Assembly (NCBI RefSeq): GCF_024223415.1
Contig: NZ_CP100504.1
Strand: one strand, 5' to 3'
DNA from: Escherichia coli
Lineage (GTDB): Bacteria; Pseudomonadota; Gammaproteobacteria; Enterobacterales; Enterobacteriaceae
DNA length: 63,428 nucleotides
Of the stretch, positions 3,190 to 49,015 are shown piece after piece. A program made the translations under genes and the position numbers. The notes under the pieces are model-generated. The model worked only from the letters and a program-made list of their open reading frames with translations. It was not told the DNA's origin and searched no databases. Every line of letters begins with the position of its first letter. Position 1 is the first letter of the stretch.

Positions 3190-4422
3190 TCATGTTGCCG
3201 CCAGCGGGCGACAGATCGCCCGCAGGGCGACGGCGCTGCACAGCGGAAACAGCGCCAGCAGAAGCCAGGGATAAACCGCCTGCGGCGACGGAATGAGCGC
3301 CTGGTCAAGTAAATGACCGAGCAGTAAATTCCCGGCTAACACCGCGCACCCTCCTGCGGTGGCGAGCGCTCCGTAGTGGGCGCCCAGCGTCGACTCCTCG
3401 GCGAACAGCGGGATCAGATCCTTGGCTGCGGGCACTAACAGCATCTGGCCGAGGGTGAGCAGCGTGACAAAACCAGCCGCCGGCATTAACCGCAGCCAAC
3501 TTTCGGCGGGTGGGGCGGCGGCGAATAACGCCACGCTGGCAAAGGAAGCCGACAGCAGCAGAAAGCCCACCGGCAGGATGCGCACGGCGCCCATTCGCCG
3601 GGCGAAGCGGGCGAGAGGGAGCTGGAGGGTGATAATCAACAGCGAGGCCAGCATAAAGAGCGGCGCCAGATCCTGCTCGCGGCCGCCGGAACGTTGGATC
3701 TCCACCGGCAGAGCGAGGTAGAGTTGGTTGTAGCTCAACAGCCATGAGCTGTAGGCGAGAATAAACGCGACAAAGCGCGGCTGGCGCAAAGGCGTCCACC
3801 ATGGGACTCGTCTGCGCGTTGTTGTCGTGTGCCCGTCGGCGGGCAGACCGAAAAAGAGCACCGCCAGCGCCAGAAGAAATATTCCCGCGCCGGCGAGGGC
3901 GATATGTCGAAAGCCGATCCCGCTCAGCACGCCTCCGGCCACCGGGCCGATCACCGCTCCCAGTTCACCGCATACCGCAAACAGCGCAAACCACTCGGCG
4001 CGGCTGCGTTTCCCGTTGGCCTGGCTGTGGGTACCGGCCCGCGCCAGCAGGGCCTCTATCGACGGGGAGAACAGGGCGCCGCCGACGCCGGTCAGGCAGG
4101 CGCCAAGGATAATGGCCCACAGCGACGCCCCGCACGCCAGCAGGAGAAAACCGGCGACGCGAACGACGCAGCCGGCGAGAATGATCGCCTTAGCGCCATA
4201 GCGGTCGGCCAGCGTCCCGCCGAGGATAAACATCCCCTGTTGGGAGAAGGTACGCAGCCCGAGGATCAGGCCGATAAGTCCGCCTGAGAGCAGCATGTCG
4301 TCGCGCAGGAAGAGGGCGAGGAAAGGTACGACCGCGTAAAAGCCAATATTAAAAACGAACTGGCTTCCCAGTAACACCGGAGGCCAGAGGGTTGCCGCAG
4401 GGCGCAGGGAGAAAAGAGGCAT
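3190..4422 (-). CDS. eitD: MFS transporter, EitD-like
   Basis: Multi-pass membrane protein; likely start is the internal Met (MPLFSL) 12 nt after the upstream ATPase stop; last gene of a four-gene operon in eitABCD order. Confidence 0.55.
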   Translation of the reverse strand: MPLFSLRPAATLWPPVLLGSQFVFNIGFYAVVPFLALFLRDDMLLSGGLIGLILGLRTFSQQGMFILGGTLADRYGAKAIILAGCVVRVAGFLLLACGASLWAIILGACLTGVGGALFSPSIEALLARAGTHSQANGKRSRAEWFALFAVCGELGAVIGPVAGGVLSGIGFRHIALAGAGIFLLALAVLFFGLPADGHTTTTRRRVPWWTPLRQPRFVAFILAYSSWLLSYNQLYLALPVEIQRSGGREQDLAPLFMLASLLIITLQLPLARFARRMGAVRILPVGFLLLSASFASVALFAAAPPAESWLRLMPAAGFVTLLTLGQMLLVPAAKDLIPLFAEESTLGAHYGALATAGGCAVLAGNLLLGHLLDQALIPSPQAVYPWLLLALFPLCSAVALRAICRPLAAT

Positions 4423-4433
4423 ATCCGCCCAAC

Positions 4434-5198
4434 CTAAACGATGAAATGAATGTGCTTTTTGCCGTGGTAAGGGGAGATCTCGATTTTGGTTTTCACCCGG
4501 AAAACGTCCCACAGCAGCGCTTCGGACAAAATCTCCTCCGGCGTCCCGCTGGCGAGGATCTGCCCCTGCTGCATCACGATCAGCGAATCGCAGAACATCG
4601 CGGCATGGTTAAGATCGTGAATGGCCACAATGCTGGTTACCGGCAGCTCGCTGATCAACTGCATTAACTGCATCTGATGGTGTATATCCAGATGGTTGGT
4701 CGGCTCATCCAGCAGGATTTCGCTCGGGCTCTGCGCCAGCGCGCGGGCGATATGCACCCGCTGCCGCTCGCCGCCGGAGAGGCTTAACCATCCCTGTTCG
4801 CTTTTCTCCAGCATAGCTACCCGCTGCAGCGCGGCGGCAATCGCTTCGTCATCCTGAGCGCTCCAGTTTGAGAACGGAGAGTGGTGGGGAATGCGTCCCA
4901 GGCGCACGACGTCGCGCACCCGCATATTGGCCTCGGTCATGCCGTGTTGCTCGACGCAAGCCACGCGGCGGGCGAGCTGCTTTTTCGCCATCCGGGCGAT
5001 ATCCTGGCCGTCGAGGGTGACGCGACCTGCATCCGGGCGGCGCAGGCCCGCCAGAACGCGCAGCAGCGAGGATTTGCCGCAGCCGTTGGGCCCCAGCAGT
5101 CCGACCGTTTCGCCGCGCGGCACCCGCAGCGAGACATTATTGACGATGACCTTTTTGCCTGCCTTCCAGGTGATATTTTCAGCGCAAATACTCATCAC
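4434..5198 (-). CDS. eitC: ABC transporter ATP-binding protein (iron-siderophore type), EitC-like
   Basis: 254 aa with Walker A GPNGCGKSS, ABC signature LSGGERQR and Walker B LLDEP. Confidence 0.6.
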   Translation of the reverse strand: MMSICAENITWKAGKKVIVNNVSLRVPRGETVGLLGPNGCGKSSLLRVLAGLRRPDAGRVTLDGQDIARMAKKQLARRVACVEQHGMTEANMRVRDVVRLGRIPHHSPFSNWSAQDDEAIAAALQRVAMLEKSEQGWLSLSGGERQRVHIARALAQSPSEILLDEPTNHLDIHHQMQLMQLISELPVTSIVAIHDLNHAAMFCDSLIVMQQGQILASGTPEEILSEALLWDVFRVKTKIEISPYHGKKHIHFIV

Positions 5199-6232
5199 TT
5201 ATTCCTTGAGCGGTAGATAATCACGGCAAAGAAAGGCACCCCAACCAGGGCGGTTACTACCCCAACGGGCAGACTTTGCGGGGCAATCAGCAGGCGCGAC
5301 GCAATGTCCGCCAGTACCATCAATATCGCCCCTGCCAGCGCGCTGGCGATCAGCAACGTTCGGTGCAGCGGGCCAAAGAAGAAACGCATCACGTGCGGCA
5401 CCACCAGGCCAACAAAGCCGATTGAGCCGGCCATGCTGACGATGGTGGCGGTGATCAGCGCCGCAGTGGTGAAGAGGATCAGGCGCACGCGCGGCACAGC
5501 AATCCCCAGCGAGGCGGCGGCATCGTCGCCGAAGGTGAACGCGTCCAGCGCCCGGGCATACCACAGGCAGACCGCCAGACCCGCGAGCACCACCACGATG
5601 ACCAACTGGAATTCGGGCCAGCGGACGCCGCTGAAGCTGCCCAGCAGCCAGAACATCACATCGCGCGCCTGCTGCGCGCTGGCGGTGGTGCTGATGGTAT
5701 AGGCCGTGATGGCGTTAAATAACTGCGAGGCGGCGACGCCCGCAAGAATCGTACGCTCATTGCCGCCGCGCGCGCCGTTAGTCAGCAAGGCGACAAAGGC
5801 GAAGGCGGCGAAGGCCCCGGCAAAGGCGCCTGCCGAGAGGGAAATTGCGCCAGAGCCAAGGCCCAGCACCACGATCGACACCGCGCCGGTGGAGGCCCCG
5901 GCGGAGACGCCGAGGACGTAGGGTTCGGCGAGGGCATTCTTCAGCAAGCTTTGCAGCACGACACCGCAGATAGCGAGGCCGGCGCCGCAGCAGGCGGCGA
6001 CCAGCGCGCGGCTGAGGCGGAAATCCCAGATAACGCTCTCATAGATATGGTTGAGCGGCTCAGCGGTTAAGCCGGTTCTGTTGCTGATAGCATAAAAGAC
6101 ATTCTGCAGCGGGATGGCCAGCTCGCCAACGCTGACGCCCACAGCGATCACCAGCGCCAGCACGATCGCTGCCAGTATACACCAGCCGGTGAGCAGTATG
6201 CTGCGGCACGTCTCAATCGCGCCGACGCTCAT
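5195..6232 (-). CDS. eitB: ABC transporter permease (FecCD family), EitB-like
   Basis: 345-aa polytopic membrane protein; stop and start overlap the flanking operon genes. Confidence 0.6.
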   Translation of the reverse strand: MSVGAIETCRSILLTGWCILAAIVLALVIAVGVSVGELAIPLQNVFYAISNRTGLTAEPLNHIYESVIWDFRLSRALVAACCGAGLAICGVVLQSLLKNALAEPYVLGVSAGASTGAVSIVVLGLGSGAISLSAGAFAGAFAAFAFVALLTNGARGGNERTILAGVAASQLFNAITAYTISTTASAQQARDVMFWLLGSFSGVRWPEFQLVIVVVLAGLAVCLWYARALDAFTFGDDAAASLGIAVPRVRLILFTTAALITATIVSMAGSIGFVGLVVPHVMRFFFGPLHRTLLIASALAGAILMVLADIASRLLIAPQSLPVGVVTALVGVPFFAVIIYRSRNK

Positions 6233-7230
6233 CAGTTCAGCCCCATTTTTCTCAGCTGCTCGCCCACCTGCTCCGCGCCGTAAAGCGTGCGAATGGTCGG
6301 ATTCATCGCCTGACCGTCCATGACCACGATATGGCCTTTTTTCACCGCCTCCAGCTGGCTGACGGCGGGATCGCTTTTGAGGAATTTGATCTTCTCCTCG
6401 GCTTTATCCAGCGCCCAGCGGTTACGATCCAGGCTGGCGACCACGATCACATCCGGGTTGGCGGCAATAATGCTCTCCCAGCTCACCGTGGGCCACTCGG
6501 TTTCGGAGGTAATCGCATTATGTCCGCCCAGCACGCTGGCGATAAATCCGGAGGCGCTGTTTTTGCCGCCGACATAGGCATCGGCCGAAGGTGAGGCGCT
6601 GGAGAACCAGAAGACGAAGGAGAGATCCTTTTTGCTTTTACCAAACTCCTGGCGCAGGTCGGCTTCACGTTTTTTGAAATCGGCAATCAGCGCCTGACCA
6701 CGATCTTCGACGTTGAAAATGCGGGAAAAATCGCTAATTTCCTGATACAGCCAGGTCATATCCCACAGCTTTTGCCGGCTGCCGTACATATCGCCGGTGG
6801 CCTTTTTGGTGGCGCATACCCCCGGTGAGAGGTAGCTGTTCACGCCGACGGTGGCGAGATCTTCACGCCTGGCGACTTTGCTTTCCGGCCCCAGCAGCAG
6901 CGGCAACTGGGCGGGAACGAAATCAGGATTTTGCGCCAGCACCGATTCCAGGCTCGGAATTTCCACCGTCAAGGTTTTAATCTTCGCGTTTTGCTCAGCC
7001 AGCTGCGGTAAAACGCTGTTCGGCCAGAAGGCGCTGGCGACCACCTGCTTTTGCAGCCCGAGCAGCAGCAGAATTTCGACCGTATTTTGCCCCAGCGCGA
7101 CCACGCGCTCCGGCGGCCGGGTGAAGGTCTCCTGATAGCCGCAGTTTTCAATCGTCAGGGGGTAGGTTGTTGCCAGCGCGGAACTGACGGCGGTGAACAT
7201 CAAGCCTAACGCGCAAAGGATCTTCTTCAT
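6232..7230 (-). CDS. eitA: periplasmic substrate-binding protein, EitA-like
   Basis: 332 aa with an N-terminal signal peptide (MKKILCALGLMFTAVSSALA); first gene of the operon. Confidence 0.6.
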   Translation of the reverse strand: MKKILCALGLMFTAVSSALATTYPLTIENCGYQETFTRPPERVVALGQNTVEILLLLGLQKQVVASAFWPNSVLPQLAEQNAKIKTLTVEIPSLESVLAQNPDFVPAQLPLLLGPESKVARREDLATVGVNSYLSPGVCATKKATGDMYGSRQKLWDMTWLYQEISDFSRIFNVEDRGQALIADFKKREADLRQEFGKSKKDLSFVFWFSSASPSADAYVGGKNSASGFIASVLGGHNAITSETEWPTVSWESIIAANPDVIVVASLDRNRWALDKAEEKIKFLKSDPAVSQLEAVKKGHIVVMDGQAMNPTIRTLYGAEQVGEQLRKMGLN

Positions 7231-32363: not shown

Positions 32364-34994
32364 ATGAGTAATAACCCACTTGAGGCCGTCACTCAGGCGG
32401 TTAACTCCCTCGTCACAGCACTGAAACTGCCTGACGAATCAGCAAAGGCCAATGAAGTGCTGGGCGAAATGAGCTTCCCGCAGTTCAGCCGTCTGCTGCC
32501 GTACCGTGATTACAACCAGGAATCCGGTCTGTTCATGAATGACACCACGATGGGCTTTATGCTGGAAGCCATTCCCATCAATGGGGCGAATAAGTCCATT
32601 GTGGAGGCACTCGATCACATGCTGCGCACCAAACTGCCGCGCGATATTCCGTTGTGTATCAATCTGATGTCCAGTCAGCTGGTTGGTGACAGGATTGAAT
32701 ACGGGCTGCGTGAGTTCTCCTGGTCAGGTGAACAGGCTGAACGGTTTAACGCCATTACCCGGGCCTATTATATGAAAGCGGCAGCGACACAGTTTCCGCT
32801 GCCGGAGGGGATGAATCTGGCCCTGACCCTGCGCCATTACCGGGTGTTTATCTCGTACTGTTCTCCTTCGAAGAAAAAAAGCCGGGCCGACATTCTGGAA
32901 ATGGAAAACCTGGTGAAAATCATCCGGGCGTCGTTACAGGGGGCCAGTATCACCACACAGACGGTGGATGCACAGGCCTTTATCGATATTGTCGGGGAGA
33001 TGATTAACCATAACCCGGACTCCCTGTACCCGAAAAAACGTCAGCTGGACCCGTATTCTGATCTGAATTATCAGTGTGTGGAGGACAGTTTTGATCTGAA
33101 AGTCCGGGCTGATTACCTGACGCTGGGCCTGCGTGAGAACGGCAGGAACAGCACGGCCCGCATCCTGAATTTCCATCTGGCCCGTAACCCGGAAATCGCC
33201 TTCCTGTGGAACATGGCCGACAACTACAGCAACCTGCTGAACCCGGAACTGTCCATCTCCTGTCCGTTCATCCTGACGCTGACTCTGGTGGTGGAAGACC
33301 AGGTGAAAACCCACAGCGAAGCCAACCTGAAGTACATGGACCTGGAGAAAAAGTCGAAGACCTCCTATGCCAAATGGTTTCCGTCCGTGGAGAAAGAGGC
33401 GAAGGAGTGGGGGGAACTGCGTCAGCGGCTGGGCTCCGGTCAGTCCTCCGTGGTGTCCTACTTCCTCAACATCACAGCATTCTGCAAGGACAATAATGAA
33501 ACGGCGCTGAAAGTGGAGCAGGACATCCTGAACAGCTTTCGTAAAAACGGTTTTGAGCTGATTTCACCGCGCTTTAACCACATGCGCAATTTCCTGACCT
33601 GCCTGCCCTTTATGGCCGGGAAAGGGCTGTTTAAACAGCTGAAAGAGGCCGGAGTGGTTCAGCGCGCAGAGAGCTTTAATGTGGCCAACCTGATGCCGTT
33701 AGTGGCGGATAACCCCCTGACACCGGCAGGTCTGCTGGCACCCACCTACCGTAACCAGCTGGCGTTTATCGATATTTTCTTCCGGGGGATGAATAACACC
33801 AATTACAACATGGCGGTCTGTGGCACCTCCGGGGCCGGTAAAACCGGGCTGATACAGCCACTTATCCGCAGCGTGCTGGACTCCGGGGGCTTTGCCGTGG
33901 TGTTCGACATGGGGGATGGCTACAAGTCCCTGTGTGAGAACATGGGGGGCGTATATCTGGACGGTGAAACCCTGCGCTTTAACCCGTTTGCGAACATCAC
34001 CGATATTGACCAGTCAGCGGAGCGTGTCCGCGACCAGCTGTCGGTGATGGCCAGCCCCAACGGTAACCTGGATGAAGTGCATGAAGGTCTGCTGCTGCAG
34101 GCGGTCAGGGCATCATGGCTGGCCAAAGAGAACAGGGCTCGTATTGATGACGTGGTGGATTTCCTGAAAAACGCCAGTGACAGCGAGCAGTATGCCGGGT
34201 CACCGACTATCCGCAGCCGTCTGGACGAAATGATTGTGCTGCTTGACCAGTACACTGCCAACGGCACTTACGGCCAGTATTTTAACTCTGATGAGCCGTC
34301 CCTGCGGGATGATGCAAAAATGGTGGTGCTGGAGCTGGGCGGACTGGAAGACCGTCCGTCACTGCTGGTTGCGGTGATGTTCTCCCTGATTATCTACATC
34401 GAGAACAGGATGTACCGCACGCCGCGTAACCTCAAGAAACTGAACGTTATTGATGAAGGCTGGCGTCTGCTGGACTTCAAAAATCACAAGGTCGGTGAAT
34501 TTATTGAGAAAGGCTACCGTACGGCCCGCCGTCATACCGGTGCCTATATCACCATCACACAGAACATCGTCGACTTTGACTCTGACAAGGCCTCCAGTGC
34601 TGCCCGCGCGGCATGGGGTAACTCCTCCTACAAAATTATCCTCAGACAGAGTGCGAAGGAGTTCGCGAAATACAACCAGCTGTATCCGGACCAGTTCCAG
34701 CCACTGCAGCGCGACATGATTGGTAAGTTTGGTGCGGCCAAAGACCAGTGGTTCAGTTCCTTCCTGCTGCAGGTGGAAAACCATTCCTCCTGGCACCGCC
34801 TGTTTGTGGACCCGTTAAGCCGCGCCATGTACAGCTCTGACGGCCCGGATTTTGAGTTTGTGCAGCAGAAACGTAAAGAGGGGCTGAGTATTCATGAGGC
34901 GGTGTGGCAGCTGGCGTGGAAGAAGTCAGGGCCGGAGATGGCTTCGCTGGAAGCCTGGCTGGAAGAACATGAGAAATACAGGAGTGTTGCATGA
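32364..34994 (+). CDS. traC: T4SS ATPase TraC (VirB4-like)
   Basis: 876 aa with Walker A GTSGAGKT; matches TraC. Confidence 0.95.
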   Translation: MSNNPLEAVTQAVNSLVTALKLPDESAKANEVLGEMSFPQFSRLLPYRDYNQESGLFMNDTTMGFMLEAIPINGANKSIVEALDHMLRTKLPRDIPLCINLMSSQLVGDRIEYGLREFSWSGEQAERFNAITRAYYMKAAATQFPLPEGMNLALTLRHYRVFISYCSPSKKKSRADILEMENLVKIIRASLQGASITTQTVDAQAFIDIVGEMINHNPDSLYPKKRQLDPYSDLNYQCVEDSFDLKVRADYLTLGLRENGRNSTARILNFHLARNPEIAFLWNMADNYSNLLNPELSISCPFILTLTLVVEDQVKTHSEANLKYMDLEKKSKTSYAKWFPSVEKEAKEWGELRQRLGSGQSSVVSYFLNITAFCKDNNETALKVEQDILNSFRKNGFELISPRFNHMRNFLTCLPFMAGKGLFKQLKEAGVVQRAESFNVANLMPLVADNPLTPAGLLAPTYRNQLAFIDIFFRGMNNTNYNMAVCGTSGAGKTGLIQPLIRSVLDSGGFAVVFDMGDGYKSLCENMGGVYLDGETLRFNPFANITDIDQSAERVRDQLSVMASPNGNLDEVHEGLLLQAVRASWLAKENRARIDDVVDFLKNASDSEQYAGSPTIRSRLDEMIVLLDQYTANGTYGQYFNSDEPSLRDDAKMVVLELGGLEDRPSLLVAVMFSLIIYIENRMYRTPRNLKKLNVIDEGWRLLDFKNHKVGEFIEKGYRTARRHTGAYITITQNIVDFDSDKASSAARAAWGNSSYKIILRQSAKEFAKYNQLYPDQFQPLQRDMIGKFGAAKDQWFSSFLLQVENHSSWHRLFVDPLSRAMYSSDGPDFEFVQQKRKEGLSIHEAVWQLAWKKSGPEMASLEAWLEEHEKYRSVA

Positions 34995-35377
34995 CCATAA
35001 CGCAAAAAACGACTGACGTTACAGCCCCCCGACGCAGCCACTGGTGGTGGACGGTGCCGGGATACCTGGCAATGGTGTTACTGAACGCAGCCATCAGTTA
35101 CGGCATTGTCAGACTGAACGCACCGGTGACTGCCGCCTTCAACATGAAACAGACCGTGGATGCGTTTTTTGACAGCGCCAGTCAGAAACAACTGTCAGAA
35201 GCACAGTCAAAAGCCCTTTCAGCGCGTTTTAACACGGCACTGGAAGCCAGCCTGCAGGCGTGGCAGCAGAAACACCACGCGGTCATTCTGGTGTCGCCTG
35301 CTGTGGTACAGGGGGCACCGGATATCACCCGGGAAATCCAGCAGGATATTGCCCGGCGAATGAGGGCGGAGCCATGA
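34991..35377 (+). CDS. trbI: TrbI
   Basis: 128-aa membrane protein coupled to traC and traW by overlapping stop and start codons. Confidence 0.85.
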   Translation: MTITQKTTDVTAPRRSHWWWTVPGYLAMVLLNAAISYGIVRLNAPVTAAFNMKQTVDAFFDSASQKQLSEAQSKALSARFNTALEASLQAWQQKHHAVILVSPAVVQGAPDITREIQQDIARRMRAEP

Positions 35378-36006
35378 GATGCCGGGGGCTGATTGCCCTG
35401 CTTATATGGGGGCAGAGTGTGGCCGCCGCCGATCTTGGTACCTGGGGCGATCTGTGGCCGGTAAAGGAGCCGGACATGCTGACGGTGATCATGCAGCGCC
35501 TGACGGCACTGGAGCAGTCCGGTGAGATGGGCCGGAAAATGGATGCCTTTAAGGAGCGGGTGATCCGTAACAGCCTGCGGCCCCCTGCCGTGCCCGGTAT
35601 CGGACGCACAGAGAAATACGGCAGCCGGTTGTTTGACCCGTCCGTCAGACTGGCTGCGGATATCCGGGATAACGAAGGGCGGGTGTTTGCCCGTCAGGGT
35701 GAAGTGATGAATCCGCTGCAGTATGTTCCTTTTAACCAGACGCTGTATTTCATCAATGGCGATGATCCGGCGCAGGTGGCCTGGATGAAACGCCAGACGC
35801 CGCCCACACTGGAGAGCAAAATTATCCTCGTGCAGGGCAGTATCCCGGAGACGCAGAAGTCTCTGGACAGCCGTGTTTACTTTGACCAGAACGGTGTGCT
35901 CTGCCAGCGCCTCGGCATTGATCAGGTCCCGGCACGGGTGAGCGCCGTTCCCGGCGATCGCTTCCTGAAGGTGGAATTTATTCCGGCAGAGGAGGGCAGA
36001 AAATGA
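35374..36006 (+). CDS. traW: pilus assembly protein TraW
   Basis: 210 aa from MRCRGLIALLIWGQSVAAA (signal peptide); ATG overlaps the trbI stop. Confidence 0.9.
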   Translation: MRCRGLIALLIWGQSVAAADLGTWGDLWPVKEPDMLTVIMQRLTALEQSGEMGRKMDAFKERVIRNSLRPPAVPGIGRTEKYGSRLFDPSVRLAADIRDNEGRVFARQGEVMNPLQYVPFNQTLYFINGDDPAQVAWMKRQTPPTLESKIILVQGSIPETQKSLDSRVYFDQNGVLCQRLGIDQVPARVSAVPGDRFLKVEFIPAEEGRK

Positions 36007-36995
36007 AGCGAAGCCTGTGGCTGCTGATGTTATTCCTTCTCGCCGGTCATGTCCCTGCAGCGTCTGCGGATTCTGCCTGTGAGGGGCGTTTTGTAAACCC
36101 GATCACGGATATCTGCTGGAGCTGTATTTTCCCGCTCTCGCTGGGCAGTATCAAAGTCAGTCAGGGTAAGGTCCCCGACACGGCGAACCCGTCGATGCCC
36201 ATTCAGATTTGTCCGGCACCGCCGCCGCTGTTCAGGCGTATCGGGCTGGCCATTGGTTACTGGGAGCCGATGGCGCTGACGGACGTCACCCGGTCACCGG
36301 GATGCATGGTTAACCTGGGCTTCAGCCTGCCGGCTTTTGGTAAAACGGCACAGGGAACGGCGAAAAAGGATGAGAAGCAGGTGAACGGGGCGTTCTATCA
36401 CGTTCACTGGTACAAATACCCGCTGACGTACTGGCTGAACATCATCACATCGCTGGGCTGTCTGGAAGGTGGTGACCTGGATATCGCTTATCTTTCTGAA
36501 ATAGACCCCACCTGGACGGACAGCAGCCTGACCACCATTCTCAATCCGGAAGCTGTCATCTTTGCCAATCCGATAGCACAGGGGGCCTGTGCAGCAGATG
36601 CCATTGCCAGCGCCTTTAATATGCCTCTCGATGTTCTGTTCTGGTGTGCCGGTTCGCAGGGCAGTATGTACCCGTTCAATGGCTGGGTGAGTAATGAGTC
36701 CAGTCCGTTGCAGTCCTCCCTGCTGGTCAGTGAACGCATGGCGTTCAAGCTGCACCGTCAGGGCATGATTATGGAAACCATCGGGAAAAATAACGCCGTC
36801 TGTAATGAATATCCGTCCCCAATCCTGCCCAAAGAACGCTGGCGTTACCAGATGGTGAATATGTACCCGGACAGCGGACAGTGCCACCCGTTCGGGCGCA
36901 GTGTGATGCGCTGGGAGACGGGAAAAAATCCGCCCAACACAAAGAAAAACTTTGGCTACCTGATGTGGCGTAAACGTAACTGTGTATTTCTGTAA
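36003..36995 (+). CDS. traU: TraU
   Basis: 330 aa with signal peptide; Cys-rich; matches TraU. Confidence 0.9.
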   Translation: MKRSLWLLMLFLLAGHVPAASADSACEGRFVNPITDICWSCIFPLSLGSIKVSQGKVPDTANPSMPIQICPAPPPLFRRIGLAIGYWEPMALTDVTRSPGCMVNLGFSLPAFGKTAQGTAKKDEKQVNGAFYHVHWYKYPLTYWLNIITSLGCLEGGDLDIAYLSEIDPTWTDSSLTTILNPEAVIFANPIAQGACAADAIASAFNMPLDVLFWCAGSQGSMYPFNGWVSNESSPLQSSLLVSERMAFKLHRQGMIMETIGKNNAVCNEYPSPILPKERWRYQMVNMYPDSGQCHPFGRSVMRWETGKNPPNTKKNFGYLMWRKRNCVFL

Positions 36996-37021
36996 CTTAA
37001 ACAAAAAGAGGAATATTTTAA

Positions 37022-37330
37022 ATGGAAAAGAAATTAAGCAGTAAATACATTCATATGTATATGAGTATATCCCGAGTGTTCATTCGTTTGACAGGCAATG
37101 TATTAAAACTGTTTCCTTTTGCTATGGTGATATTCCCTGTGGTGTGGTTTTATCTTTGCCCTGAACATATTATCTCAGACATTGTTAACGACTGGCAGGA
37201 TGCAGATACACTGGAAAAAATACTGCTTGTCAAACTGTATCTGAAGACGGTTCTTATTCTGACAGTGGTAAGCGTTGTTGTCTTGTATCTTTCGTCAGAT
37301 AAGTTTATGCCTGTTAAACGCAGGAAATGA
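37022..37330 (+). CDS. small hypothetical membrane protein (cargo between traU and trbC)
   Basis: 102 aa with two hydrophobic segments; visibly AT-rich compared with flanking tra genes. Confidence 0.45.
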   Translation: MEKKLSSKYIHMYMSISRVFIRLTGNVLKLFPFAMVIFPVVWFYLCPEHIISDIVNDWQDADTLEKILLVKLYLKTVLILTVVSVVVLYLSSDKFMPVKRRK

Positions 37331-37392
37331 GTCTGGTGGTTCTCATAAATATAACTGTGTGTGCATGTGTACAATATAAGTAAAGGTGCGTT

Positions 37393-37914
37393 ATGGGATT
37401 TTTCTCGTTTTTACGAAAGATAAGTAATAAAGAAAAAGGGGTGGTTATCTATGAGAAGCAGTGGTTCTCACTGCTGGAAAAGGTGAGTGCTTTTGATGAG
37501 GTCAGACAATGGGCTGAAAGTAATGGCGGAGCATATTATCCTATGCTGGAGTGTCGTCGGCTTACAGACAGTGAAAATGTCAGGAAATCAGAGGATATAC
37601 TGAACCGACTGGAGTTTATTGACAGAAGATTTCGGGAATTCATCAGCATTATGTCTGAACATATTAATAATGATAAAACTAAATCCATGTGGGAGAGGGA
37701 ATTGTCTGAATATCCACCGGAAAAAATATACCAGGTCCAGAGAGAGGGAGAACATCTGTCATTAAAAAATTATGGTGATGATATTACTCTGAACAGAGAT
37801 ACCGCCGTGGCTACGGTGCAGATTACTGTCAGCAGAAAATGCATTACTCAGGAAGAAATGGATGAATTATATGCATTGTCTGAGAGACTGAAAGAAAAGT
37901 GCGCCGGTAATTAA
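37393..37914 (+). CDS. hypothetical protein (cargo between traU and trbC)
   Basis: 173-aa soluble-looking ORF with RBS aaaggtg; no recognisable motif; AT-rich. Confidence 0.5.
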   Translation: MGFFSFLRKISNKEKGVVIYEKQWFSLLEKVSAFDEVRQWAESNGGAYYPMLECRRLTDSENVRKSEDILNRLEFIDRRFREFISIMSEHINNDKTKSMWERELSEYPPEKIYQVQREGEHLSLKNYGDDITLNRDTAVATVQITVSRKCITQEEMDELYALSERLKEKCAGN

Positions 37915-37940
37915 ATTATATCACTGTGCCGGGAGATGAT

Positions 37941-38579
37941 ATGAGCCGGAAAATATTTGAACTTTTTGCCCTGACAGCAGGACTGTTTATTTCTGCCCAC
38001 GCTTCGGAAAATGTGAATACACCCGAAAACCGCCAGTTCCTGAAGCAGCAGGAAACACTGAGTCAGCAGTTACGTGAAAAACCGGACACACAGCTGCAGG
38101 CATGGGCAGAACAGCAGGTCAGGGCGAATCCCCTTCAGCATTCCGATAACCAGTTTCTCGATGAACTGGTCCGTAAACAGCAGGCTGCTCAGAAGGATAA
38201 ACCACAGCAGGGTGCCCTGTATTTTGTGTCGTTTTCCATACCCGAAGAGGGGCTGAAACGGATGCTGGGCGAAACCCGGCACTACGGTATTCCGGCCACA
38301 CTGCGGGGCATGGTGAACAACGACCTGAAGGCTACGGCTGAAGCCGTGTTGTCCCTGGTGAAGAACGGGGCAACCGATGGTGTTCAGATTGACCCGACGC
38401 TGTTTTCACAGTACGGCATTCGCAGCGTTCCGGCCCTGGTGGTGTTCTGCAGACAGGGGCACGACATCATCCGGGGAAACCTGCGTGTCAGACAGGCACT
38501 GGAGAAAGTGGCCAGCGCGGGGGACTGCCGGCAGGTGGCTCAGGGACTGCTGGACGGCACCGGGGATAAATCGCAATAA
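37941..38579 (+). CDS. trbC: TrbC
   Basis: ~212 aa from MSRKIFELFALTAGLFISAHA (signal peptide; RBS gggaga); matches TrbC. Confidence 0.9.
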   Translation: MSRKIFELFALTAGLFISAHASENVNTPENRQFLKQQETLSQQLREKPDTQLQAWAEQQVRANPLQHSDNQFLDELVRKQQAAQKDKPQQGALYFVSFSIPEEGLKRMLGETRHYGIPATLRGMVNNDLKATAEAVLSLVKNGATDGVQIDPTLFSQYGIRSVPALVVFCRQGHDIIRGNLRVRQALEKVASAGDCRQVAQGLLDGTGDKSQ

Positions 38580-38626
38580 GTTTACCTGCAGGCTATTACC
38601 GGATTGACCCGGACATCCGTGCACTG

Positions 38627-38947
38627 GTGTCCGCGATGAACGTGCATGGATTTCGCACATATGCGTCCTGTCAGGGGCATGGCTTCCCTGTTACGAAACT
38701 GCCGCCTTATATCGCCTTTTCCTGTCCGGTAAAAATGGCTGCCCTTCTGGAGCAGCGACTGCGGCAGGATGCTGAATCAGCAATACCACGTCTGACATGG
38801 GGATGGTCGGTGAAGGGGACTTTTAACAGTGATTTTCAGCTTTGCTTCCGGCTTCAGCCTGAAAGCCCTCATCACTGGTATCACCGGTACTGTCGCCGCT
38901 CACTGCGTGCAGACTTCAGGACGCTGGTCCGCTTACTGAATCCGTAA
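38627..38947 (+). CDS. hypothetical Cys/His/Trp-rich protein
   Basis: 106-aa ORF (GTG at 38627 or ATG at 38636) between trbC and traN; function unknown. Confidence 0.4.
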   Translation: MSAMNVHGFRTYASCQGHGFPVTKLPPYIAFSCPVKMAALLEQRLRQDAESAIPRLTWGWSVKGTFNSDFQLCFRLQPESPHHWYHRYCRRSLRADFRTLVRLLNP

Positions 38948-38971
38948 ATCTGTTCCCGTAAGGAGGCATTG

Positions 38972-39394
38972 ATGGCGCTGACAAAGAAGCAGCGGGAAAA
39001 ACTGCGTATGAAATTCGGCGGTCGTTGTGCGTACTGCGGCTGTGAACTGCCGGAAAAAGGCTGGCATGCCGACCATGTTCAGGCGGTGCTCCGCAAGTCA
39101 GAGCAGTGCATGAAGGCTGCAGAAAAGCGCATTTTCAGGCTGAAATCCACCGGTGATGTTTTCAGACCGGAGGCCGACTGTCCGGAAAACCTCGTCCCGG
39201 CCTGTGCGCCGTGCAACCTGCTGAAAACAACATATTCGCTGGAGATGTTCAGAACGCAGGTGTCCCTGCAGGTTGAACGGGGGCGAAGAAGCAGCGTGAA
39301 TTTCAGGACCGCAGAACGGTTCGGGCTGATTCAGGTGGTGAACAAACCAGTCGTGTTCTGGTTTGAGCAATATCAGAGGGAGAGTGAGGTATGA
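38972..39394 (+). CDS. HNH endonuclease
   Basis: 140 aa with CAYCGC...WHADHV...PACAPCN (HNH fold with paired Cys motifs); RBS aggagg. Confidence 0.75.
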   Translation: MALTKKQREKLRMKFGGRCAYCGCELPEKGWHADHVQAVLRKSEQCMKAAEKRIFRLKSTGDVFRPEADCPENLVPACAPCNLLKTTYSLEMFRTQVSLQVERGRRSSVNFRTAERFGLIQVVNKPVVFWFEQYQRESEV

Positions 39395-42377: not shown

Positions 42378-42632
42378 GTGGTTTGTACCCTGTCCATGAT
42401 GATGGCGGAAGGTATTGTTATTATGAAATATGAATTGTGGCATATCCCTCCTGCCCTGCTGGGTCTGGCAGGAGTGTTGTCATGGTTGCTGCTGCTACTC
42501 CATACAGGATATTTTTCAGGCATATCAGAAGGAGTGCATAAGCGTTTGTGGCTCGCTGTTGCCGCAGTGTTTTCTGGTGCGGGAATGATTATATTCTACT
42601 GGTTGCTCCATGCATTGCATCAGAAAACATAA
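42378..42632 (+). CDS. TrbA-like membrane protein (tentative)
   Basis: 84-aa hydrophobic ORF in the traF-traQ interval where F carries trbA and antisense artA; a minus-strand ORF (42589-42807) may correspond to artA. Confidence 0.35.
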   Translation: MVCTLSMMMAEGIVIMKYELWHIPPALLGLAGVLSWLLLLLHTGYFSGISEGVHKRLWLAVAAVFSGAGMIIFYWLLHALHQKT

Positions 42633-42863
42633 TAAAATAACGAATAGTTAATGCGAGAATAAGACACATCCAGAGAATAAATATTATAAGTGCGAGTTTT
42701 GCTCTTCTTATTCGTAACGCGGACAAGTAATTTATTACAGAGAGGAGCATCCAGAGTTCAATGCATATTATTATTAATATAAAAACAGAGAGCGTGATAA
42801 TTAACATAACTGTGTCTGATTGATGAAATCAGCAATATACTGAATAATAATGGTGTTTTAAAT

Positions 42864-43145
42864 ATGAGAAAATATAAATTCTCTTTACCCCGGCTTGATA
42901 TTACGGGTATGTGGGTATTTTCCCTGGGTGTCTGGTTTCATATCGTCGCCCGTCTTGTTCACAGCAAACCCGGGATGGCTTTTTTTCTGGCGGAGCTTAT
43001 TGCGGCTATTCTCGTGCTGTTCGGTGCATACCAGGTGCTGGATGCATGGATTGCCCGGGTCAGCCGGGAAGAGCGTGAGGCGCTGGAAGCCAGGCAACAG
43101 GCCATGATGGAAGAGCAGCTGGAGGGCGGACATGTCTCTCACTAA
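42864..43145 (+). CDS. traQ: pilin chaperone TraQ
   Basis: 93-aa membrane protein; matches TraQ. Confidence 0.85.
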   Translation: MRKYKFSLPRLDITGMWVFSLGVWFHIVARLVHSKPGMAFFLAELIAAILVLFGAYQVLDAWIARVSREEREALEARQQAMMEEQLEGGHVSH

Positions 43146-43686: not shown

Positions 43687-43990
43687 GCAGGTGGTGTTAC
43701 TCATTGCCGGAATATCCGGCATCGCGACGGGAATAATCGTCAGCCTGAATATCCCCTTTATCCGTCAGGGACTTTTTTATCCCGCCAGCCCTGTAGAAAT
43801 TGTCGTTTCGCTGTGTCTTACCTTTTCTGTTTCTGTTGTGTTTTTTGTGGGGGCAATTGTGGGATGGATTTTGGTGTCTGAAATATATTACAGCCGCATG
43901 ACCGGTCTGAATGAATCATCAGTAATATCAGAGGAAACTTATAATGACAGAAAACAAAAAGAATCAGGAATTCAAAATAAGAAAAATTAG
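43679..43990 (+). CDS. trbJ: TrbJ-like membrane protein
   Basis: ~103 aa from a GTG overlapping the trbB stop; two TM segments; position matches trbJ. Confidence 0.5.
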   Translation, partial: RNKQVVLLIAGISGIATGIIVSLNIPFIRQGLFYPASPVEIVVSLCLTFSVSVVFFVGAIVGWILVSEIYYSRMTGLNESSVISEETYNDRKQKESGIQNKKN

Positions 43991-44336
43991 ACGGAATATT
44001 GAGTATAGTTTCAGAGGTTCTGACAGATATTTTGATTTGTTTTTTGTTTTCCTTGTTGCCGGAATTGTTTTATGGGCAGTTATGCACGTTATTTTCGATG
44101 TCTGTATTGATTCGTGGATGGCCGACCCGAAATTACTTAATTTCCAGTATATGTGGAATGTTCTGATGAAAGTCATTCCGTTTACGTTATGGGCGCTGGC
44201 AGCAGGGTTTCTTGTTACATTTTTTCTGTCCCCAATGTGCGAATTAATATTAGGAAATATCGGGATATTCCTGCTGAAATGTCGTATGCGCCGGGAGAAC
44301 AAATTAAGGGAGGTCAAGAATGATGCCACGCATTAA
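43944..44336 (+). CDS. trbF: TrbF
   Basis: 130-aa membrane protein in the expected position. Confidence 0.75.
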   Translation: MTENKKNQEFKIRKIRRNIEYSFRGSDRYFDLFFVFLVAGIVLWAVMHVIFDVCIDSWMADPKLLNFQYMWNVLMKVIPFTLWALAAGFLVTFFLSPMCELILGNIGIFLLKCRMRRENKLREVKNDATH

Positions 44337-48515: not shown

Positions 48516-48535
48516 TATTGTATGGGGAGATGATA

Positions 48536-49015
48536 ATGAGATGTTTAACCCATATTGCTCTGGTAACGGTGATACAGTTTATCGCCTGTTATCTGGCTGG
48601 TTGGGGGAATGCCGAAACAATTTTTATGCTGTTCTTCATAGTACTATGGCAGGGACTGTTTATATGGTTGTTCTCTCAAATACGAAAAAAACGGAATGTG
48701 TCGGATGAGTTTAAGTTTAGTAAAGGCGTTTGGTATATAACGATGCCAGTATCTTCCTTACTCTCTCCATTATTAAGCCTGATGGTTTTTATCATTGGTA
48801 CACTATACGAATTAAGGCGAGTTAGTGGTTGTGTAAGTGTAAGAGAATGGATGCAATCTCAGGTAAATGAACAAACTAATGAAGATTTGCATCTGGATTT
48901 TGATAATATGGATTTTCATCGTACTAATCCTGCAACAGGGTTACCTATGTCAGGTATTGGTGTGGATATCGGTGGTAATTCATATGGTTATAGTTCAAAA
49001 CGATATGATGAGTGA
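48536..49015 (+). CDS. traS: entry exclusion protein TraS
   Basis: ~159-aa hydrophobic inner-membrane protein between traG and traT; AT-rich as is typical for traS. Confidence 0.75.
   Translation: MRCLTHIALVTVIQFIACYLAGWGNAETIFMLFFIVLWQGLFIWLFSQIRKKRNVSDEFKFSKGVWYITMPVSSLLSPLLSLMVFIIGTLYELRRVSGCVSVREWMQSQVNEQTNEDLHLDFDNMDFHRTNPATGLPMSGIGVDIGGNSYGYSSKRYDE

Follow-up and report, generated by a model that had tools for sequence, protein, structure and literature searches.

Two small genes in a polymorphic slot between traU and trbC of an F-like transfer operon

In the F plasmid the conjugation genes traU and trbC lie 8 nt apart. In the 63,428-nucleotide stretch of Escherichia coli DNA analysed here (the window; contig NZ_CP100504.1 of assembly GCF_024223415.1), two open reading frames (ORFs) occupy this junction, ORF1 of 102 and ORF2 of 173 residues, neither of which is found there in F. 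The locus thus raises the question of whether these ORFs are genuine genes, how they came to lie among conserved transfer genes and what they may do for the plasmid. The first-pass annotation, made from the sequence alone, had taken them for AT-rich cargo without recognisable domains, inserted into the operon. Our analysis shows that both are true protein-coding genes under purifying selection, several-fold weaker than that on the core machinery, and that small accessory genes vary from plasmid to plasmid at the traU-trbC junction, a polymorphic slot which in this window holds ORF1 and ORF2 of type A.

Coding status and contents of the slot

With stop codons at a local frequency of 0.0755, frames as long as ORF1 and ORF2 would stay open by chance with P = 3e-4 and P = 1e-6, respectively. 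The 893-bp segment was found at a coverage of at least 80% in 478 plasmid records, with diverged copies in many more. The proportion of non-synonymous differences (pN) was below that of synonymous differences (pS) in six of six pairwise tests, with Fisher p values between 1e-7 and 0.009 in five of them and p = 0.06 in one. The ratio of non-synonymous to synonymous rates (dN/dS, or omega) was 0.23-0.47 for ORF1 and 0.25-0.51 for ORF2, as against 0.03-0.05 for traU and 0.08-0.13 for traW; for trbC it was 0.09-0.19 in comparisons with the window and 0.09-0.36 across the full set of pairs. Since pN is lower than pS and omega lies several-fold above that of the core tra genes, selection on the two genes is purifying but relaxed. 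It might be argued that ORFs without any known domain, one of which (ORF2) is truncated or lost in some plasmids, are spurious or decaying pseudogenes. However, the frame of ORF1 is kept down to 24-33% amino-acid identity and that of ORF2 down to 31-35% (33% in the BLASTP local alignment), both genes have strong Shine-Dalgarno sites, and the conserved motif core of ORF1 is sharply bounded; together with the low pN and the small probabilities of a chance ORF, these observations leave such an explanation hardly any room.

How exceptional is the pair at this position? The slot was surveyed in about 4,100 plasmids (4,106) that match the end of traU. The empty junction of F is a minority state, seen in 1,435 of the 4,106 (about 35%), and an ORF1-like gene is present in about 2,023 (about 49%), R100 and pSLT included. 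ORF2-like genes were found in 801 plasmid records (about 20%). The window-type cassette occurs in 328 of the 5,426 complete E. coli genomes, and 355 of its 357 copies are plasmid-borne. The proposal of accessory genes inserted into the operon therefore stands in part: the genes are accessory and absent from F, but they are not an insertion peculiar to this operon, as about half of the traU-bearing plasmids have a gene of the ORF1 type. The same is true of the synteny comparison that had been suggested, in which F lacks both genes whereas R100 has an ORF1 homologue at the same site (WP_000224416.1; 46% identity, E = 3e-32).

Several arrangements fill the slot. R100 and the pSLT-type Salmonella plasmids have one ORF1-type gene; the window, pHN7A8 and RHB24-C09 have ORF1 with ORF2 type A; and RHBSTW-00673 has an ORF1-type gene with ORF2 type B. 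In pEQ011, ETEC4068 and an E. albertii plasmid, ORF2 type B is accompanied by a 153-residue YfdA-like P-loop protein. At two loci (L010, 4316-4459; L012, 4334-4460) the ORF1-type gene is followed by a remnant of the ORF2 3' end (130-145 nt), in a non-coding gap measured at 127-144 nt. Because the last ORF2 codons (GGTAATTAA) and the conserved sequence before trbC remain there, ORF2 has been lost from these plasmids with ORF1 left intact. Salmonella plasmids (L013, 2679-3912; L014) carry a pair of genes for orphan membrane proteins (180 and 193 residues) and then an ORF1-type gene, and the Klebsiella IncFIIK plasmid pKP167-261 carries an unrelated 58-residue ORF (L018, 3091-3267). In every variant compared, the slot is bounded by the stop codon of traU and by the ribosome-binding site of trbC, and the 26-nt spacer before trbC is common to type A and type B cassettes and persists where ORF2 has been deleted.

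The P-loop protein of pEQ011 (L004, 3022-3483) has the Walker A motif GEEDTGKST; the annotations given to this kind of protein vary between 'YfdA', 'ATP-binding' and 'sigma-54-interacting regulator'. Its gene was found in 278 records at an identity of at least 90%, and relatives about 43% identical in 463 records, of which those sampled were mostly plasmids of about 60 kb. In the one IncI2 transfer region examined, that of pWH07-3 (L015, 3947-4477), such a relative adjoins the coupling-protein gene directly on its 3' side, which suggests that slot genes travel with conjugation operons. The Salmonella orphans of 180 and 193 residues have a helical N-terminal part and C-terminal transmembrane (TM) segments, and their GC content is 0.44 compared with 0.56 in the flanks; they matched no NCBIfam or PADLOC model and show no relation to ORF1 or ORF2.

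The history of the slot is recorded in the divergence of its alleles. Between the window and R100, synonymous divergence (dS) in ORF1 is 1.17, near saturation, whereas in the adjoining traU it is 0.06 and the encoded proteins are identical. This difference argues that the ORF1 alleles are old and have been swapped by homologous recombination in the conserved flanks, and are not recent arrivals. In comparison with the RHB24 allele, conservation is about 95% in the spacer between ORF1 and ORF2 but the ORF1 proteins share only 70% identity, which places a recombination breakpoint inside ORF1. The window itself represents a distinct IncFII-type plasmid that is 90-97% identical to pHN7A8 overall; the block from traW to the 5' end of trbC (35150-38300) is 99-100% identical to pHN7A8, and identity falls to 92-95% in the 3' end of trbC and in traN.

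Could the cassette nevertheless be foreign cargo that a mobile element has recently inserted into this plasmid, one form of the insertion first proposed? Its absence from F would agree with such an event, as would its low GC content relative to its neighbours. The AT-richness reported at the outset was confirmed: GC is 0.369 in ORF1 and 0.397 in ORF2, and 0.37-0.40 over 36900-37950 as against 0.55-0.59 on either side. At third codon positions (GC3) the values are 0.41 and 0.40 for the two ORFs, compared with 0.67 for traU and 0.63 for trbC. However, GC3 is also low in trbG, traV and traR of the same operon (0.38-0.39), and the ORF at the traS position of the window (48518-49015, 165 residues) has a GC content of 0.34-0.40; since these genes are equally AT-rich, composition does not mark ORF1 and ORF2 uniquely as foreign. 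No flanking or terminal repeats, target-site duplications, insertion sequence, transposase, recombinase, integron or attC features were found at the cassette, where the only repeats are short and at chance level. Furthermore, its ends fall exactly at the stop codon of traU and at the trbC ribosome-binding site, deeply diverged alleles occupy the slot in about half of the F-like plasmids, and the cassette lies within the 3-kb block shared almost exactly with pHN7A8, and so was inherited or recombined together with its flanks. A recent mobile-element insertion is therefore improbable.

Two protein families without known domains

ORF1 belongs to a family of proteins of about 95-115 residues, whose alleles in the 2,023 plasmid records stand at 99, 71, 60, 46, 44, 42, 40, 37 and 32% identity. 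The family comprises about 170-190 clusters at 90% identity, all from Enterobacterales, and its entries are labelled hypothetical or, from genomic context, 'conjugative transfer protein'. An alignment of 97 sequences revealed a conserved core, K29-L-F-P-F, F43-Y-F-x-P47-E/D, S52-D53, W58, D62 and R/K71-L-Y-L74, and the ORF1 of the window has every invariant or near-invariant residue of the family. Constraint falls on the first transmembrane segment (TM1), on the short, acidic helix of the loop and on the beginning of the second segment (TM2), and both tails of the protein vary, as does the distal half of TM2. The closest known counterparts, the 101-residue R100 protein and Q93GM9_SALTY of pSLT, have the same locus, length and two-TM layout and share the motifs KLFPF, FYFxPE, W, D and RLYL with ORF1; they differ in being encoded by a single gene without ORF2, and their labels, such as 'Conjugative transfer protein' for pSLT, come from genomic context only.

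Two hydrophobic segments are present in ORF1 and no TM-like segment in ORF2, in agreement with the earlier description of a two-TM and a soluble protein. The AlphaFold model of ORF1, built from the 97-sequence alignment, has a predicted local distance difference test score (pLDDT) of 78 and helices at residues 2-45, 48-60 and 63-91, with TM1 predicted at about residues 29-47, an acidic periplasmic helix at 48-60 and TM2 at about 63-91. Over the 97 sequences, the mean net charge is +3.1 at the N-terminus, -3.3 in the loop and +2.1 in the C-tail, and from the positive-inside rule we infer an inner-membrane hairpin with both termini in the cytoplasm (N-in/C-in) and an acidic periplasmic loop. Fold searches with this model returned the pSLT family member (TM-score 0.84) and generic hairpins, and nothing else.

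Remote homologues of ORF1 were detected at the tail of the operon for a type IV secretion system (T4SS) in some IncX plasmids (MPF_T, MOBP), where they sit after the genes for the coupling protein, a Cag12-like protein and TrbM/KikA. Their relationship to ORF1 is indicated by hhalign probabilities of 98.9-99.0% (E = 1.9e-17 and 3.7e-18), and they occur in 58 plasmid records. Judged by these profile matches, the ORF1 family is tied to the conjugation operons of two T4SS types, F-type and P-type.

ORF2 represents a family of soluble proteins of 150-173 residues, encoded directly upstream of trbC, with the motifs E-C-R, I-D, S-I-M, D-K, W, Y-P-x-E-K-x-Y and a C-terminal G-N. The ORF2-like genes in the 801 records stand at 99% or 85-89% identity, or belong to a second type of about 30%; type A (173 residues) and type B (150 residues) are 33% identical (E = 6e-19). 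An exhaustive profile search of 1.84 billion representative proteins recovered only two full-length ORF2 clusters and fragments. ORF2 appears mostly helical, and its residues 2-12 could form an amphipathic helix (hydrophobic moment 0.66); the AlphaFold model, made from an alignment of seven sequences, is unreliable (pLDDT 43). No remote kinship was seen between ORF2 and the Salmonella 180- and 193-residue proteins, the YfdA-like protein, the 123-residue ORF of the window or the ORFs upstream in IncX (hhalign probability at most 0.6%). By its sequence relationships, ORF2 is a lineage-restricted cytoplasmic orphan.

An inverted repeat (37337-37351 and 37446-37460) brackets the ribosome-binding site and start codon of ORF2, and a 151-nt RNA at this start folds with z = -2.2 (3 of 200 shuffled sequences were as stable). 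A conserved regulatory RNA at this site can probably be rejected, for in the RHB24 allele the arms of the stem are not preserved, nor are there compensating changes.

The statement that neither protein has a recognisable domain withstood searches of Pfam, NCBIfam, PADLOC and PHROGs. ORF1 gave no significant match in Pfam, NCBIfam, PADLOC-DB v2, PHROGs v4, PDB sequences or Rfam, and ORF2 no match in the same collections or in phage records; in PADLOC-DB v2 and PHROGs v4 not one family was reached by either protein at E <= 1, and tblastn of both against 50,697 phage records found nothing. When all members of the ORF1 family were compared with Pfam, only sub-threshold hairpin noise was obtained (PRA1, VMA21, PspG). 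Homology to a mating-pair formation component, which was to have told against the first-pass annotation, was not found: the family hidden Markov models (HMMs) of ORF1 and ORF2 matched only themselves among 472 ORFs from the window and the tra regions of F and R100, and they revealed no similarity to the genes at the traS or traT positions of these three. Likewise, no sequence or fold similarity to solved structures of VirB2/TraA-type pilins or of VirB3 was observed.

In the literature searched, no paper names or tests either gene; Anthony et al. 1999 and Cox & Schildbach 2017 were outside the reach of this search. The largest comparative survey, 'Five Shades of F' (PMC5102898), used F proteins as its only queries, and surveys of this design would miss the slot genes because F has neither of them. 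A study of urinary E. coli lists hypothetical ORFs flanked by transfer genes.

Are the two genes expressed, and do they act together? The earlier claim that each has its own ribosome-binding site is borne out by the motifs GAGGA (ORF1) and AAGGTG (ORF2). On the coding strand from 36500 to 38500 no promoter-like or terminator-like site was found, and no Rfam element was found at the locus. As both genes lie on the tra strand, separated by short gaps (26 nt from the traU stop to ORF1, 62 nt from ORF1 to ORF2 and 26 nt from ORF2 to trbC), with Shine-Dalgarno sites of their own and no internal promoter or terminator, transcription from the promoter of the tra operon would run on through them, and their products would appear only in donors that are competent for transfer.

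ORF1 and ORF2 do not form an obligate pair. Most ORF1-type genes stand alone; by subtraction, roughly 1,400-1,500 records, R100 and pSLT-type plasmids among them, have such a gene without ORF2, and ORF2 type B is found with the unrelated P-loop protein in place of ORF1. A small two-TM protein with a basic C-tail beside a soluble protein, with a possible amphipathic helix at the N-terminus of the latter, might suggest an obligate module: an addiction system, with its toxin in the membrane and its antitoxin in the cytoplasm, or the sensor and effector of an abortive-infection system. Yet the occurrence of ORF1 alone, the different partner of ORF2 type B and the plasmids in which ORF2 is deleted beside an intact ORF1 argue against pairing of either kind. 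In addition, the spacer of 62 nt leaves no overlap, there is no dedicated promoter, and no PADLOC or NCBIfam toxin-antitoxin model was matched, so that we regard an obligate module as very improbable. Taken jointly, the descriptive account given so far, of real and non-essential genes from unnamed families that occupy a polymorphic slot and are co-expressed with the operon, is very likely to be correct.

Possible roles and related systems

F conjugates without genes of the ORF1 or ORF2 type, and the two genes should therefore be dispensable for DNA transfer itself. As a tentative proposal, held at somewhat less than even confidence, ORF1 may be a non-essential accessory protein of the donor inner membrane that modulates the conjugative apparatus, with ORF2 as a separate cytoplasmic addition. 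ORF1 would be placed N-in/C-in in the donor inner membrane, where it would use its conserved TM1 and its periplasmic loop to influence the assembly, stability or envelope cost of the apparatus. It would thus be a generic accessory akin to other small Trb proteins, serving F-type and P-type systems alike, and ORF2 would work in the cytoplasm independently of it. This proposal is favoured by the IncX homologues, which also lie inside transfer operons, and by the finding that neither ORF is a paralogue of a mating-pair formation protein. Several points weigh against it: neither experiment nor homology ties ORF1 or ORF2 to the T4SS; non-synonymous change in ORF1 is about ten times faster than in core Tra proteins; many unrelated genes besides ORF1 can fill the slot, as is commoner for genes of conflict or specificity than for parts of a machine; the presence of ORF1 with both F-type and P-type systems disfavours an F-specific periplasmic partner; the unreliable fold of ORF2 leaves the activity of that protein unconstrained; and we infer, rather than observe, the transcription and translation of both genes.

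The slot might instead be a small competition or defence island, in which ORF1, ORF2 or both take part in conflict between genetic elements and are co-expressed with the pilus, since the cell is exposed at that time; the roles envisaged are additional exclusion, fertility inhibition of co-resident plasmids, and the shielding of pilus-bearing donors against lethal zygosis or against phages specific for the pilus. Many unrelated orphan cassettes with fast turnover between conserved core genes are the signature of a conflict locus, and the relaxed or diversifying-like selection (omega 0.23-0.51, set against the values for traU) and the deep allelic divergence with swapping of alleles agree with it. 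In the same direction point the resemblance of these AT-rich small membrane proteins to the traS-position gene of the same operon, the portability of the ORF1 family across F-type and P-type plasmids, and the YfdA-like occupant of the slot, whose similarity to anti-phage models is sub-threshold (DS8, 20 bits; mad8, E = 8e-4). On the other hand, these DS8 and mad8 similarities lie far under the cut-offs of the families and belong to another protein, neither ORF1 nor ORF2 has a PADLOC or PHROGs match or a phage homologue, and the traS and traT positions of the plasmid are already occupied by genes. Moreover, the best-conserved part of ORF1 is its membrane and loop core, not a hypervariable surface, which suits a conserved partner more than a role in specificity. 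On balance we regard a role in conflict as the main rival, somewhat less likely than the accessory role. The fuller form of this idea, that the slot is a miniature competition and defence island and that the ORF1 family of IncF and some IncX plasmids is a new class of conjugation-coupled inner-membrane factor, is unlikelier still. If it were true, the ORF1 family would protect piliated donors from pilus-dependent phages or lethal zygosis, or would hamper rival plasmids, for instance as a so far unmapped determinant of fertility inhibition or of exclusion, and one arms race would have further, alternative modules in ORF2, the YfdA-like ATPase and the Salmonella membrane orphans.

Returning to the accessory role that we tentatively prefer, ORF1 and ORF2 are closest in kind to the small non-essential trb genes of F-like operons. 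In F, the small products TrbA, TrbD, TrbE, TrbF, TrbG, TrbJ, ArtA and TraP are non-essential and are co-transcribed with the tra genes. Like ORF1 and ORF2, their genes are short, AT-rich, often code for membrane-associated products and lie among essential tra genes. Small genes of the tra operon are also variably present among F-like plasmids (PMC5102898). The F products differ in having no sequence relation to ORF1 or ORF2, neither of which is found in F.

Other comparisons, with traS and with the SXT/R391 elements, are analogies only. TraS resembles ORF1 in that both are AT-rich, highly divergent inner-membrane proteins encoded within the tra operon; however, there is no homology between them, ORF1 is smaller and has two TM segments, and its conserved core suggests a partner that is conserved and not allele-specific. 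The ORF at the traS position of the window matched no NCBIfam model. The integrative and conjugative elements of the SXT/R391 family have an F-type mating-pair system with variable hotspots between conserved tra genes, where alternative, unrelated cargo is found. Like these hotspots, the traU-trbC slot is a fixed intergenic position in a conjugation cluster with differing cargo. Yet the SXT hotspots hold multi-kilobase cargo with recognisable functions such as resistance and defence, whereas the slot holds 0.2-1.6 kb, with one to three orphan genes that have no recognisable function and, it seems, no promoters of their own. Small hairpin membrane proteins such as class II holins and PspG resemble ORF1 in gross features only, namely a length of about 100 residues, two TM segments, the predicted N-in/C-in topology and a basic C-tail. 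Identification of ORF1 as a class II holin was rejected: topology and charge are compatible with it, but there is no lysis-gene context, PHROG match or phage homologue.

What this analysis yields is a defined ORF1 gene family, with a clear core and a predicted topology; it also maps one slot whose changes are driven by recombination. The link that the ORF1 family forms between IncF and IncX and the slot map are useful, but they will not surprise specialists. The slot genes are carried by the FII-33/pHN7A8 lineage and its KPC-2 cointegrates in Klebsiella ST11, by R100-type plasmids and by Salmonella virulence plasmids; although some of these are highly successful resistance plasmids, databases call the genes hypothetical throughout. 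If the genes tune transfer, donor cost, exclusion or phage susceptibility, they could help to explain differences in spread among otherwise similar F-like plasmids, and the content of the slot could serve as a typing marker. If their effects are subtle, as for many trb genes, they amount to routine accessory variation, and the practical gain would be modest either way.

Locus layout and other features of the window

The F-like transfer operon of the window lies on the plus strand, in the order traC, trbI, traW, traU, ORF1, ORF2, trbC, a 123-residue ORF, an HNH-endonuclease gene and traN. The first-pass coordinates of both ORFs between traU and trbC were exact; they are listed with the neighbouring features in Table 1.

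Table 1. Features at and around the traU-trbC junction, in window positions.
Feature	Position	Strand	Description
traC	32364-34994	+	ORF call
traU	36003-36995	+	Conserved upstream flank; ORF call; protein identical to R100 TraU (WP_000830838.1)
ORF1 Shine-Dalgarno GAGGA	37008-37012	+	9 nt before ATG; motif kept in other ORF1-bearing junctions
ORF1	37022-37330	+	ATG, 102 residues, predicted two-TM hairpin; ORF call, hydropathy, AlphaFold model
ORF1-ORF2 spacer	37331-37392	+	62 nt; holds ORF2 Shine-Dalgarno
ORF2 Shine-Dalgarno AAGGTG	37383-37388	+	4 nt before ATG
ORF2	37393-37914	+	ATG, 173 residues, soluble, type A; ORF call
ORF2-trbC spacer	37915-37940	+	26 nt; junction comparison of 10 plasmids
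trbC Shine-Dalgarno GGGAGA	37931-37936	+	4 nt before ATG
trbC	37941-38579	+	Downstream flank; ATG at 37941 is the annotated pHN7A8 start

The junction between trbC and traN (38576-39394) also holds extra genes in the window, while in F trbC and traN overlap. The first (38576-38947) is the 123-residue hypothetical ORF, with no NCBIfam or PHROG match, and the second (38969-39394) encodes a 141-residue HNH endonuclease with weak similarity to HNH models of the retron/Septu PtuB type; in pSLT-type plasmids the HNH gene stands alone at this junction. Additional ORFs were also seen elsewhere in related operons. Klebsiella pKP167-261 has a 133-residue single-TM ORF between traW and traU (L018, 1683-2084), and one E. 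coli plasmid has a 138-residue ORF and a 368-residue gene on the opposite strand between traC and trbI (L010, 426-1892).

Outside the transfer genes, the minus strand of the window at 3190-7230 encodes an eit siderophore ATP-binding cassette (ABC) transporter that has no match in pHN7A8. EitA (694 bits) and EitC (519 bits) both score over the NCBIfam cut-offs, and a permease and a major facilitator superfamily (MFS) exporter accompany them; these genes are virulence-type cargo beside the IncFII repA region (1-1709). Within the operon, further AT-rich dips at 42600-42900 and 43800-44250, with GC down to 0.31 and 0.35, respectively, correspond to the traF-traQ gap, where no gene is annotated in pHN7A8, and to trbJ/trbF.

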